Origin: an uncultured Candidatus Saccharibacteria bacterium
GTDB lineage: Bacteria > Patescibacteriota > Saccharimonadia > JAGOAT01 > CAYZIP01
NCBI GenBank assembly: GCA_964478695.1
Contig: CAYZIP010000003.1
Coordinates: 4,143-68,142, forward strand
Direction: 5' to 3'
DNA: 64,000 nt
Shown in pieces: positions 10,637 to 14,054 of this stretch (positions are counted from its first letter, which is position 1; every line of letters starts with the position of its first letter). The position numbers and the translations under genes are program-made. The notes under the pieces were generated by a model that saw only the letters and a list, made by a program, of their open reading frames with translations, ran no database searches and was not told where the DNA came from.

Positions 10637-11353
10637 TCATTTTCCCACAAGATAGCCAAGAGCAATTCGAGCATCGGCACTATCTAGTTTTAGGATTTTT
10701 TTCCACTCATAATCTAGCATCCCTCCAACCGCTACACCTTTTAATTTAGTAGATTCTGCTATTTGTAATGACAGCTGTTGTAGTGCCGCTCCTACTTCGA
10801 ACAGTGCAAATCTACCTCCTCGTTCTCCATATTTACTCATGACACGCTGGGGGAATATAACAAAAACTATCATAATATTCGGAGCCCCATTTATTTGCAT
10901 ATTAATAGATTTGCTTGACTCCTCCCATGAAGGAGCTTGATCAGAAATTACTATAGTGCCATGTTTTTCGGGATCATAATAGATTACTCTTCCAGAATAG
11001 CCTTTAACATTAAAAGCCACACAAAATATTTCTGTGACATATGTCGCCCCTGCTGATGGATAGGTACGGTGCTCTAGCCCATTACAGGCATAGAAGCTAG
11101 ATAGTAGGTGACTTAACTCTTTAATAGAAAGTTCTTTGTTAGAAAATGTATGATCACTTTTACGTTTTTTTGCAATTTTATTAATTCGTTTTTGTACAAA
11201 AGGTAGGGGCTTAGGTGCATCAGGGTATTCTAAAAAGAGTTCCTTTTCATTGCTATTATAAGTATTTAATTGTCTAGAGAATTCTTGAATATTAAATTTG
11301 TCCAGGCTCGAAGCTTCCCAAAATTTATCAAATAGTGTTTCATCGTCATTCAT
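10637..11353 (-). CDS. SagB-type (McbC-like) FMN dehydrogenase, the B protein of TOMM/LAP azoline oxidation.
   Basis: RTYPSAGATYVTEIF is the nitroreductase-like SagB signature. The gene is the last in the minus-strand operon. Confidence 0.75.
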   Translation of the reverse strand: MNDDETLFDKFWEASSLDKFNIQEFSRQLNTYNSNEKELFLEYPDAPKPLPFVQKRINKIAKKRKSDHTFSNKELSIKELSHLLSSFYACNGLEHRTYPSAGATYVTEIFCVAFNVKGYSGRVIYYDPEKHGTIVISDQAPSWEESSKSINMQINGAPNIMIVFVIFPQRVMSKYGERGGRFALFEVGAALQQLSLQIAESTKLKGVAVGGMLDYEWKKILKLDSADARIALGYLVGK

Positions 11354-11355
11354 AG

Positions 11356-12624
11356 TTAACCTAAGGGATGTGGTATTAAATTAGGAAATATAAGTTCGTT
11401 AGATGCCCATTGGTAGCGACTTTTAAGTTTGTTGTGCAGTTTATCAATCAAGGGCCATTGTTGGTGGGCAAAAATAGATGCCAGGTCTGGAGATACAGCT
11501 CGCACCACTCGTATACCCAGCTGCTTGGCATCTATCGTAGTCAGCTCACGGTAGTATAATCTAATCTTGTTTTTTTGTAGCATATTCTTAACGGCTTCCA
11601 GTGATTCTTCTGTACTCATCACATTGCCCTTAACCGAAATGTTATAAATATGCTCTACATTACTAAACATCGGTAATTTATGCCAAAGTTCAGGATGTAA
11701 TGTATAAAAAATAGCATGCTCATCAAATGACTTTATTGTATATGGATCAACTATACCAGAAACATCCACATGTTTTTCGTAAATCCCTGCGAATAATACC
11801 CCCTGATTCCATTCTAAATAAGCTTTCTCTAGGGCATCTTCCCATGTCTCTCGACAAGCAACCCCAAGAGAATATCGCCACCTACCTCGTTTCTTAATCC
11901 CTCCAGCCACTGCAATAACAGGAAATGGACTGTAGTCAGGGGTTAAGTCAAAAGCCCATATCTCACCATTTAATGACTTTACTTGATCATAGTACTTTGA
12001 GGGAACTTTGATTGAATGAGCCGGTATGCTGTGAAGCCATGTTATCATCAATGCGTCACGCTCTATAAGCTCTTGGATGGCACGTAGTAGTGCCGCTAGA
12101 GCAGTTGCCCCAGCAGCTAGGCCTGATGAAGTAGGAATACCAGTTTGGTAATCGTCACGAAGTACTACAAATGGATGAGGAATCCATACCTCATCATTGG
12201 TTTGAAAATCAAAAACATTTGTTAATAAGCAGTCATTAGAGTAAATATTCTTAAAAGGGAATAATGGATTCTGTCGTTGCTCATTTGTGAATAAGCACCA
12301 CTGTTGAGCCTCAAGCTGTTTATTTTTTGGAACGAATTGCCTGTGTTTTAATGGCAATTCTACTATGGCTGCACAATATCTTTCTATGGCTTCTGCTGTC
12401 CCGGCAATTTGTGCGTCTTCTATATTTCTGCCGATACCCCCAGCGGCACTTTCCCAAGGGGATTCAATGGACCCTGGTACTCCTACATGAATTATGTCTT
12501 GAACATCACTCATAGATATCGTGGCACGTTGAGGTTCTAGTGTGATACCATGCCTATTATTCGGCGCCCGTAGTAGAAGAGGCCTACTAAGGTAGCTTTT
12601 CTGTATTTGTTGATTCTTCATCAT
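11356..12624 (-). CDS. YcaO-domain cyclodehydratase, the D protein of TOMM/LAP biosynthesis.
   Basis: SAAGGIGRNIEDAQIAGTAEAIERYCA is the ATP-binding YcaO motif. The protein is 422 aa. It lies immediately upstream of SagB. Confidence 0.8.
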   Translation of the reverse strand: MMKNQQIQKSYLSRPLLLRAPNNRHGITLEPQRATISMSDVQDIIHVGVPGSIESPWESAAGGIGRNIEDAQIAGTAEAIERYCAAIVELPLKHRQFVPKNKQLEAQQWCLFTNEQRQNPLFPFKNIYSNDCLLTNVFDFQTNDEVWIPHPFVVLRDDYQTGIPTSSGLAAGATALAALLRAIQELIERDALMITWLHSIPAHSIKVPSKYYDQVKSLNGEIWAFDLTPDYSPFPVIAVAGGIKKRGRWRYSLGVACRETWEDALEKAYLEWNQGVLFAGIYEKHVDVSGIVDPYTIKSFDEHAIFYTLHPELWHKLPMFSNVEHIYNISVKGNVMSTEESLEAVKNMLQKNKIRLYYRELTTIDAKQLGIRVVRAVSPDLASIFAHQQWPLIDKLHNKLKSRYQWASNELIFPNLIPHPLG

Positions 12625-13282
12625 AAAGATTTGTTGTTTTTTCTATATCTTGTTTGGAGACTGCCAGTGTACTGTCGCTAACTTCTTTTCCAATGCTCTT
12701 GTGATACCAAATTGTGATAGATCTAATAACAGAAGGGACCATGGCAAGGTAAAGAATAATCCCCAGATATTTAAGTGTAAATACTATGAAGGCTATACTA
12801 ATCATCTCGACTATAAAAGCCAGTTCTGTCAAGGCAGTAACCATAAGCGCACGTTTCAATGGCTTTTTAATATGCACTCTTATATACAGATATAATAGTA
12901 TGATAAAAGGTGCAGTAATTAATAATGGAAATATAAATTTAGCACCAGGGGTAGTGCAAAAAGTATAATGATTATCCCCAAAATAGTCAGGGGTATTATA
13001 TTTATAGATATTACATTTTTTCCAGAATAAGTTAATCATCCAGAAACCAAAATAAACAATGGCTCCGATCATGGGGATAAAAAGAGCTGCAAGTATAGTC
13101 AGAATGCGACGGTCAGGTATTTGATGTTTTTCGCCTTCTTTAGAGATACGTTTAGCTAATAGAGTCGAAGAGGCAATCGAGGTCGCTAAACAACAACAGC
13201 AGCAACAACATGAAGAACATGTTGGGGTTGCAACGGCATTAGATAGTCTTTTGTCGTCAAATTGTGTTTGTAATGCTTTCAT
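12587..13282 (-). CDS. Cys-run membrane protein. The N-terminus is MKALQTQFDDKRLSNAVATPT-CSSCCCCCCC-LATSIASSTLLAKR, followed by at least 4 TM helices. It is a putative azole-modification substrate (precursor-like) fused to a membrane domain.
   Basis: A continuous ORF with GGAG 8 nt upstream of the ATG. The codon run is tgt tct tca tgt tgt tgc tgc tgt tgt tgt. It overlaps the E1-like gene upstream and ycaO downstream. Confidence 0.45.
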   Translation of the reverse strand: MKALQTQFDDKRLSNAVATPTCSSCCCCCCCLATSIASSTLLAKRISKEGEKHQIPDRRILTILAALFIPMIGAIVYFGFWMINLFWKKCNIYKYNTPDYFGDNHYTFCTTPGAKFIFPLLITAPFIILLYLYIRVHIKKPLKRALMVTALTELAFIVEMISIAFIVFTLKYLGIILYLAMVPSVIRSITIWYHKSIGKEVSDSTLAVSKQDIEKTTNLYDEESTNTEKLP

Positions 13283-14054
13283 TCTTACTCCATGGTAATA
13301 TTAGTGCTCCACTAGGGCTAACTTTATTGGGGTTACACACAGGACATATAGGCACTTTTAATAGCTGATTTACTTTTATAGTTCTATCTTGAAAGTTCCA
13401 AGAAATGGTTTTATTAGTTAGGCTTGTATCATTTTGCGATATTTTACCTAGCTCTATTTTAGTAAGTTCTAGAGTGATACCTAGATAATCTTTTATAGCT
13501 TTGGGTGAAGTCGGTGGAGCTTCGTCCCCCCACCTAGTACTGATTCGTCCTTGCAAACAAGCAATACATGCTGTTTCTCCTGGAAATACCAATGGGCCAA
13601 ATGAAATAGTATGATGAAATGCCATATCTACAAAGATGTGCGGTTTTACAATACTTTTATAATCAATTTTATCTAATAGTTTAATATATGTACTATTAGT
13701 TCGCACGATTAAAAGAATATCAGCTGTTTTGGCATCATGATGATAATTAATGCCCAGTTTATTGCCATCACCAATAACACTGACTCGTAATGTAGTACTT
13801 TTTTGTAAAATAGGCACTACAATTTCTGCTGTTATGAGCTCTTCTAATACATCATCATCCTGTTTTTTAAGCTGGTTGCGTGTAAATGGTGAATCAGGTT
13901 TTAGTGCAGAAAAGAACGATAGCTCATCACTTTCTAGTTCAATTTCATAACGAGCGTCAGCCCCACCAGATATTATTAAATCTGTGCCTTGCTGAAATAT
14001 ATTCCATTCAGGCAATAGTTTATATGTTAATTCTTTTAGTTTGCTCAAGTGCAA
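13257..14054 (-). CDS. E1/ThiF-like docking protein (C protein), partner of YcaO, with a C-terminal CxxC...CxxC.
   Basis: VSVIGDGNKLGINYHHDAKTADILLI gives a Rossmann-like G-rich fold. CIACLQ...CPVCNP is present. The gene is first in the operon. Confidence 0.55.
   Translation of the reverse strand: MHLSKLKELTYKLLPEWNIFQQGTDLIISGGADARYEIELESDELSFFSALKPDSPFTRNQLKKQDDDVLEELITAEIVVPILQKSTTLRVSVIGDGNKLGINYHHDAKTADILLIVRTNSTYIKLLDKIDYKSIVKPHIFVDMAFHHTISFGPLVFPGETACIACLQGRISTRWGDEAPPTSPKAIKDYLGITLELTKIELGKISQNDTSLTNKTISWNFQDRTIKVNQLLKVPICPVCNPNKVSPSGALILPWSKNESITNTI

Follow-up and report, generated by a model that had tools for sequence, protein, structure and literature searches.

A four-gene azole-type modification cassette in Saccharibacteria with a poly-cysteine membrane protein as its putative substrate

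The subject of this analysis is a four-gene cassette on a 64,000-nucleotide stretch of DNA (the window) from an uncultured Candidatus Saccharibacteria bacterium (assembly GCA_964478695.1, contig CAYZIP010000003.1). According to the list of open reading frames (ORFs), the cassette occupies positions 10637-14054 on the minus strand, in the order C-A-D-B. Gene C (13257-14054; 265 aa, TTG start) codes for an E1-like partner of a cyclodehydratase, and gene A (12587-13282; 231 aa) for the putative substrate, a protein integral to the membrane whose N-terminus resembles a leader and is followed by a poly-Cys core. These are followed by gene D (11356-12624; 422 aa), which codes for a YcaO cyclodehydratase, and gene B (10637-11353; 238 aa), which codes for a SagB-type azoline dehydrogenase dependent on flavin mononucleotide (FMN). 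The original prediction, made from the sequence alone, spoke of four overlapping minus-strand genes; the coordinates and strand were correct, as were the overlaps between C and A (26 nt) and between A and D (38 nt), whereas D and B are spaced 2 nt apart and do not overlap. The layout fits a translationally coupled operon. An AAGGAG sequence lies ahead of the TTG start of gene C, and the sole intergenic gap on the upstream side of the operon, a 101-bp minus-strand stretch 5' of gene C (14055-14155), presumably carries the promoter and the 5' untranslated region. A consensus scan of this gap revealed no sigma-70-like minus-strand site.

The three enzymes are of the classes that had been predicted. 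The protein of gene D matches the YcaO family (Pfam hidden Markov model PF02624) with E=9.1e-37 and 127.5 bits, against a cutoff of 25.7, and carries the expected motif, SAAGGIGRNIEDAQIAGTAEAIERY. Its score with the SagD model TIGR03604 is 150.4 bits, under the cutoff of 219.25; the scores with TIGR03266 and TIGR00702 are far under their cutoffs, and there is a weak TruD match. In all eight aligned homologues the YcaO motifs SAxGG...ExxER and SSGLAA...ELIERDA are invariant and the Pro-rich C-terminus FPNxxPHPLG is kept, and the ATP/Mg (nucleotide)-binding motifs of the enzyme are retained. The protein of gene B contains RTYPSAGATY and scores over the cutoff of the SagB model TIGR03605 (81.7 versus 78.4 bits), with a match to the Nitroreductase family PF00881 (E=8.5e-10); its best solved relatives are the microcin B17 dehydrogenase McbC (E=8.3e-9) and BmdC. 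In the protein of gene C, an N-terminal peptide-recognition domain, resembling the recognition element (RRE) found in systems for peptides that are made on the ribosome and modified afterwards (RiPPs), is combined with a Cys4 site (C163, C166, C237 and C240). The site is made up of the two predicted CxxC pairs, CIAC at residues 163-166 and CPVC at residues 237-240, and all four Cys residues are invariant across 32 homologues. The models of the SagC family and of leader binding in thiazole/oxazole-modified microcins (TOMMs) were matched by this protein below their cutoffs only (34.1 bits for SagC TIGR03603, with a cutoff of 187.65). A YcaO cyclodehydratase, an E1-like partner with a recognition element and a SagB-type dehydrogenase are the TOMM features present in the cassette, and to judge from the motifs the azole machinery looks catalytically intact.

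The features of protein A were taken from its AlphaFold model (pLDDT 78), together with hydropathy and charge counts. Residues 1-21 (13220-13282, minus strand), MKALQTQFDDKRLSNAVATPT, form a leader-like segment that is hydrophilic and disordered in the model. The core follows at residues 22-31 (13190-13219, minus strand) with the sequence CSSCCCCCCC, ten contiguous heterocyclizable residues; the predicted TCSSCCCCCCC corresponds to residues 21-31. The post-core stretch, residues 32-43 (13154-13189, minus strand), LATSIASSTLLA, is uncharged and rich in Ser, Thr and Ala; joined to the core, it makes up a hydrophobic segment of 22 residues without charge (residues 22-43). The Kyte-Doolittle peak of the protein is found here, at residues 25-43 (mean 1.84), and the model contains a helix at residues 26-52. 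A Lys/Arg-rich stretch (residues 44-60) leads into the membrane domain (residues 58-208; 12659-13111, minus strand), which in the model consists of four transmembrane helices (58-86, 114-136, 141-169 and 174-208) and a beta-hairpin loop (91-110) bearing two Cys residues, C91 and C109, a pair that is conserved. The loop charges are +6/-3 for residues 44-60 and +4/0 for residues 137-147; the N-terminal tail and the 137-147 loop are predicted to be cytoplasmic and the hairpin with the Cys pair external. With the N-terminal tail inside, the Cys run would be reachable by cytoplasmic ATP-dependent enzymes. Protein A has four or five hydrophobic segments in all, and it keeps the canonical order of leader, core and C-terminal extension, the extension here being the membrane domain, for which no fold relative was found in the PDB. 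A lipoprotein signal peptide at ATPTC was also considered, and was ruled out because the 20 residues before it are hydrophilic.

Protein A belongs to a sizable family, for which an exhaustive profile search (E<=0.001) gathered 254 clusters at 50% identity; a word-indexed search yielded 66 clusters at 90% identity. For protein A and ten diverse relatives no family model exists in Pfam, NCBIfam or PADLOC, and a reading of the protein as part of a defense system is unsupported, there being no PADLOC match. The N-termini of the family follow the pattern xxLxTQFDx(7-8)VATPTC(SS/GG/-)C6-8(L/V/I)A(T/S), after which come two to four hydrophobic segments. Among 193 such N-termini the first core residue stands at median position 22, eight Cys residues are typical, and CSSCCCCCCC is the commonest core (94 members). 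In an alignment of 173 members, the positions conserved at 90% or more are Q7, F8, D9, A18, T19, P20, T21, C22, C25-C31 and E159, with 94-99% for the core Cys residues (C22 and C25-C31) and 90-100% for those of the leader. E159, located in the third membrane helix and kept at 95%, is the sole strongly conserved intramembrane residue; P70 and Y178 are conserved at 89% and 84%, respectively. Outside residues 7-31 the protein diverges to about 27-33% identity. L32, A33 and T34 are conserved, and residues 32-52 are conserved within Saccharibacteria, whereas the wider family shows no conservation of the sequence after the core. The membrane domains are nevertheless mutually homologous, as 172 of 186 fall in a single BLAST component.

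The codons for Cys (TGT/TGC), Ser, Thr and Ala vary freely beneath the invariant residues, in genomes of 33-71% G+C, which argues that it is the peptide, and neither DNA nor RNA, that selection acts on. About 190 homologues keep the Cys run and what surrounds it nearly invariant, and the poly-Cys feature is, by this measure, not a chance pattern. The model of the SagA precursor (TIGR03602) matched neither the protein A of the window nor its N-terminal 54 residues; the best relative reached 21.5 bits against a cutoff of 35, and some relatives show faint, sub-threshold similarity to models of streptolysin S and thiopeptide precursors. Two apparently minimal members of the family, the possibly incomplete sequences P0272 (88 aa) and P0241 (141 aa), consist of the leader, the poly-Cys core and about two hydrophobic segments; both still hold the conserved intramembrane Glu (IELF, VAEVF). 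They hint that a helix hairpin bearing the Glu may be the essential part of the membrane domain. An apparent C-A fusion (P0244) was judged to be a frameshift or gene-call artefact, as it has lost the C-terminal CPxC motif.

The constancy of the cassette was assessed in 21 distinct loci, which were gathered by exact-sequence look-ups and by a scan of species representatives with a YcaO alignment. C, A, D and B are all present in each of the 21 loci, the flanking genes being unrelated between them, and gene A is positioned in every case either between C and D or immediately next to the cassette, in genomes ranging from 33 to 71% G+C. When every ORF of at least 70 aa from these loci was clustered all against all, only the four cassette genes recurred, and the remaining clusters were antisense shadow ORFs; no fifth conserved gene, such as a protease or exporter, was found among the 21 loci. 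The predicted lack of a transporter and a leader peptidase in the operon is thereby borne out, and no CaaX-like protease or ATP-binding cassette (ABC) transporter was detected within about 7 kb of the cassette in the window or its identical contigs. A further scan for short precursors (ORFs of 15-90 aa with at least four Cys residues and a C-terminal half rich in Cys, Ser and Thr) gave scattered one-off matches and no recurrent ORF in the 21 loci. In all 21 of them the YcaO gene lies beside the Cys-rich gene, and in none beside a gene for TfuA or ribosomal protein S12; indeed, no TfuA gene was found at any of these loci. The poly-Cys gene had been singled out as the only candidate substrate, and no other Cys-rich ORF recurs; what it encodes, however, is a membrane protein of 231 aa and not a short precursor.

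Gene A is duplicated or relocated in four of the sampled genomes, a behavior typical of precursor genes. Tandem copies occur in L013 (7001-7735 and 7852-8439) and in L018 (7204-7944 and 8001-8654). In the single genome represented by L014, L015 and L026, one copy is upstream of the YcaO gene and another downstream of B (8792-9553 and 11760-12428 in L014), and in L027 the only copy is downstream of the YcaO gene. The duplicate paralogues are near-identical in leader and core, and their membrane domains have diverged.

About a dozen of the carriers are Saccharibacteria/Saccharimonadales genomes from freshwater, wastewater and similar samples. The cassette is also found in Actinobacteria of 63-71% G+C (L014, 8001-12428 of GCA_017973775.1, with L026; L018; L027-L029; L032; and L033), namely HGW-Actinobacteria-4, an uncultured Actinomycetota genome, Arachnia sp., metagenome-assembled genomes of Propionibacteriaceae and one cultured isolate, [Pseudopropionibacterium] massiliense Marseille-P6184 (NZ_LR027842.1, L032). 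The original prediction had placed the operon in a reduced, low-GC genome, a setting to which it is thus not confined. The prediction that the cassette is native was likewise correct in part. With a G+C content of 0.375, against 0.380 averaged over the window, and a rank at the 49th percentile among sliding windows, the cassette is compositionally native to the window, and the actinobacterial cassettes, at about 0.66, equal their hosts; its ancestry, however, is not necessarily native. In a neighbor-joining tree of YcaO (without support values), HGW-Actinobacteria-4 falls within the Saccharibacteria clade and the Propionibacteriaceae form a sister group, which suggests that the cassette may have been exchanged between Saccharibacteria and Actinobacteria. 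Saccharibacteria are obligate epibionts whose known hosts belong to the Actinobacteria. The cassette is therefore a sporadic, self-contained accessory module, mobile in evolution, and not an invention of its source lineage. Distant YcaO loci (22-30% identity) are without the protein A family. Two of them are ordinary cytolysin-like TOMM clusters, a contrast to the cassette, in which a short precursor ending in poly-Cys adjoins the YcaO gene: ...SCCSCCCCCCGETAVAPSGW in Nannocystis (L049, about 525) and ...KCCCSSKFCCCTSKLCCCCCW in Actinomyces bovis NCTC11535 (L053, about 2571). The short poly-Cys precursors of these nearest outgroups suggest that the cassette may have descended from a cytolysin-type system.

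We consider it likely that the cassette is a self-contained four-gene TOMM-type module that acts on the membrane protein A encoded with it, the cytoplasmic N-terminal tail of A being the substrate. The genes would be co-transcribed and translationally coupled, and the four helices would hold protein A in the membrane, with residues 1-60 starting out in the cytoplasm. The recognition domain of C would bind the leader-like segment (residues about 3-21; QFD...AVATPT) and bring in the YcaO enzyme, which, with ATP, would cyclodehydrate C22, S23, S24 and C25-C31, and possibly T21 or T34, to azolines. The SagB-type flavoprotein would then oxidize the azolines to azoles, with as many as ten contiguous rings as the outcome, a number that is assumed for streptolysin S and has been seen in plantazolicin. 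The three enzyme classes are all represented and their motifs are intact, C has its recognition domain, and the length of the leader (median core start at position 22) is typical of streptolysin-S-type precursors. That the enzymes install azoles on protein A is, on the strength of these homologies, quite probable; azole formation is favored by the combination of an E1-like partner and a SagB dehydrogenase, which is its signature.

The polyazole segment, hydrophobic and rigid, would remain on its membrane anchor, in or on the cytoplasmic membrane, where it might be membrane-active or bind a ligand. A tethered product of this kind is favored by two observations: neither a protease nor an exporter accompanies the cassette, and conservation extends to the membrane domain with its intramembrane Glu. 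We nevertheless advance the tethering tentatively, as its chances appear to fall just short of even. Its role might be that of an element that damages membranes on contact, of a metal or redox site, or of a structural anchor. The original label of an azole-peptide operon may be wrong for the class of product, given a substrate with four or five hydrophobic segments. The product had further been called unpredictable from any described family, and yet the streptolysin-S-like composition of the core makes the chemistry partly predictable.

Several points weigh against this interpretation. The azole chemistry is deduced from homology, and the C, D and A proteins are all under the curated SagC, SagD and SagA cutoffs. 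Residues 22-43 of protein A are hydrophobic enough, with the mean of 1.84 given above, for a fifth transmembrane helix; such a helix would bury the core and place the leader outside, so that modification would be needed before insertion. In the cultured isolate the YcaO frame is split (L032, 3983-5227), the result of either a pseudogene or an assembly error. The C-terminal third of this YcaO, ending in FPNLKPHPLG, is found in another frame (4674-5222). The occurrence of the cassette is moreover sporadic, with about two dozen carriers among 185,579 species representatives, which implies a dispensable function. Finally, it is possible that housekeeping proteases and exporters encoded elsewhere release a peptide.

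The last point bears on the alternative of a classical secreted azole peptide, in which a housekeeping or unlinked protease would remove the leader and also cut between the core and the first membrane helix, freeing a streptolysin-S-like toxin, and the membrane domain of A would serve only as a delivery platform, export aid or immunity element. The composition of the core is indeed cytolysin-like, relatives of protein A show weak matches to streptolysin S models, the nearest outgroup systems have short precursors, and residues 32-52, conserved in Saccharibacteria, could house a processing site. The sequence that follows the core, however, is not conserved in the wider family, and a family-wide homologous membrane domain with a Glu at 95% exceeds what a disposable carrier needs. 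Cytolysin and propionisin clusters all have CaaX proteases and ABC transporters (PMC4603692), whereas the cassette has neither, and no protease or transporter is conserved in the 21 loci or present within about 7 kb in the window. We regard release of a secreted peptide as unlikely.

The poly-Cys tail might instead not be a substrate at all, but a metal-binding, redox or lipid-acylated motif, for example in an immunity or transport component, with the true precursor located elsewhere. Soft metals do bind to free thiols in runs, protein A far exceeds the length of any characterized TOMM precursor, and some heterocycloanthracin precursors are encoded apart from their clusters (PMC4603692). Metal binding, however, has no need of a conserved, hydrophilic, leader-like segment of 21 residues or of the peptide-recognition domain in C. 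The duplication of A in several loci resembles that of precursors, no other Cys/Ser/Thr-rich ORF recurs, and the architecture is constant in all 21 loci, such that this explanation is quite improbable. Non-azole YcaO chemistry on A (thioamide or amidine formation), or an inactive relic cassette, would be in keeping with the well-established chemical versatility of YcaO enzymes and with the disrupted YcaO frame in one isolate, but is scarcely credible in view of the absence of a TfuA gene at any locus, the E1-like partner and SagB dehydrogenase that mark azole formation, the invariant catalytic motifs and the purifying selection across phyla.

Among known systems, the streptolysin S/cytolysin TOMMs (sagA-I of Streptococcus pyogenes) bear the closest resemblance to a module with a membrane-protein substrate as proposed here. 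Like the cassette, they possess the E1-like C, the YcaO enzyme D and the FMN dehydrogenase B as discrete proteins. Cytolysin-type substrates have a leader of about 20 residues, ten or more contiguous Cys, Ser or Thr residues and then a C-terminal extension (PMC4603692), and the order of leader, core and extension in protein A matches that of streptolysin S. Unlike the sag cluster, the cassette is without a CaaX protease (SagE) and an ABC transporter (SagG-I); the extension in A is a membrane domain with four helices, conserved and about 170 residues long, compared to about 20 soluble residues; and the leader motif QFD...ATPTC is specific to the protein A family. The cassette would thus function as a discrete-BCD TOMM nearest to the streptolysin S/cytolysin type, yet by the curated models for C, D and A it falls outside that family. 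The closest solved relatives of C and B, in structure or sequence, are in the microcin B17 system (McbBCD), where McbB is an E1-like protein with a Zn-tetrathiolate and McbC is the dehydrogenase. The precursor McbA is a soluble protein of 69 aa with Gly-Ser-Cys units, exported by McbEF and processed by TldD/E; in the cassette, by contrast, a membrane protein bears the core, which takes the form of a contiguous Cys run.

Clusters for linear azole-containing peptides (LAPs) have been reported in the Candidate Phyla Radiation (CPR), in Microgenomates, Parcubacteria, Peregrinibacteria and Katanobacteria (Sharrar et al. 2020, PMC7298704). Like the cassette, they combine YcaO with a nitroreductase-type dehydrogenase in reduced genomes; the Microgenomates cluster that is illustrated has an 84-aa precursor and a peptidase gene, and neither a Saccharibacteria member nor a membrane-protein substrate is described (PMC7298704). 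The propionisin TOMM clusters of Propionibacterium (Cox et al. 2015, PMC4603692) share with the cassette their Propionibacteriaceae hosts, a D protein nearest to the cytolysin family and, often, two to three precursor genes with contiguous heterocyclizable residues. Their ABC transporters, several CaaX proteases and short precursors are all absent from the cassette, including the Propionibacteriaceae loci L018 and L032. The precursor filter of Cox et al. (less than 150 aa, with a C-terminal half rich in Cys, Ser and Thr; PMC4603692) would miss protein A, which is longer and has its core at the N-terminus. For the modification of a protein-sized substrate there is a precedent in the bufferins, small exported proteins in which multinuclear non-heme iron-dependent oxidative (MNIO) enzymes turn Cys residues into heterocycles and the product is a functional protein, a copper chelator, and not an antibiotic peptide (PMC12452194). 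The precedent is by analogy only; the enzymes are unrelated (MNIO versus YcaO) and the substrates are Sec-exported soluble proteins. From YcaO-TfuA thioamidation and stand-alone S12-type YcaO systems the cassette differs in that it has no TfuA, and its E1-like partner, dehydrogenase and Cys-rich gene are always adjacent. No description of the cassette or of a membrane-protein TOMM substrate was found in the literature covered, a scope that takes in few of the subscription journals, so this absence is not proof.

The surroundings of the cassette in the window accord largely with what had been predicted. The convergent neighbor at 9568-10629 was expected to be a PD-(D/E)xK/cupin protein; the nuclease part was confirmed (PF12705, and Cas4 models in PADLOC, which make it Cas4-like), but a cupin was not recovered by Pfam at E<=0.01. 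No CRISPR-associated genes were found among its neighbors. The other flank is formed by a WecG/TagA glycosyltransferase (14156-14992), in agreement with the predicted WecB/TagA type. Close beside the cassette are also a thioredoxin-like protein with an N-terminal hydrophobic segment (15093-15623) and a DsbA-family protein (17096-17794), and protein A itself bears the conserved Cys pair C91 and C109 in its predicted external hairpin; the linkage to these two genes is not kept in other species and may be a coincidence. Farther away, positions 35600-48100 form a block of raised G+C content (0.41-0.52, versus 0.31-0.39 nearby) that ends at a tRNA-Leu(CAG) gene (47966-48051). The block includes a MutH-like endonuclease adjoining a C5 cytosine methylase, likely a restriction-modification pair, as well as two serine recombinases of large size (41966-43780 and 46339-48012), an AAA_13 ATPase, a TauE exporter and a GNAT acetyltransferase. 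The block has the look of a mobile or defense island that has integrated, about 22 kb from the cassette and separate from it.

The enzymology of the cassette is familiar, and what would surprise a specialist is the class of the substrate, how large the unannotated family is, and that Saccharibacteria and Actinobacteria share it. RiPP genome mining presumes short precursors, and a family of at least 254 clusters, with leader and core at the N-terminus of a membrane protein of roughly 200 aa, has consequently been left unannotated. To our knowledge, streptolysin-S-type modification has resisted structural characterization. The cassette is tractable, with four genes, a substrate that can be affinity-tagged and homologues in a cultured actinobacterium. 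If the product is tethered, azole chemistry would extend from peptide antibiotics to the maturation of membrane proteins. In its fullest and more speculative form, which is possible but which we would not expect to hold in every part, the proposal is that YcaO/TOMM chemistry builds a permanent feature of a membrane protein and not a diffusible peptide, namely a rigid run of up to ten contiguous thiazole/oxazole rings tethered to or forming a membrane segment near the conserved intramembrane Glu. This would be the first such case. The module would have moved between Saccharibacteria and Actinobacteria, so its site of action could be the interface between cells, for example in the manner of an anchored streptolysin that works on contact. 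We know of almost no specialized metabolism in Saccharibacteria, and for these bacteria the cassette is a candidate effector of the epibiotic lifestyle and a marker of gene exchange with Actinobacteria.

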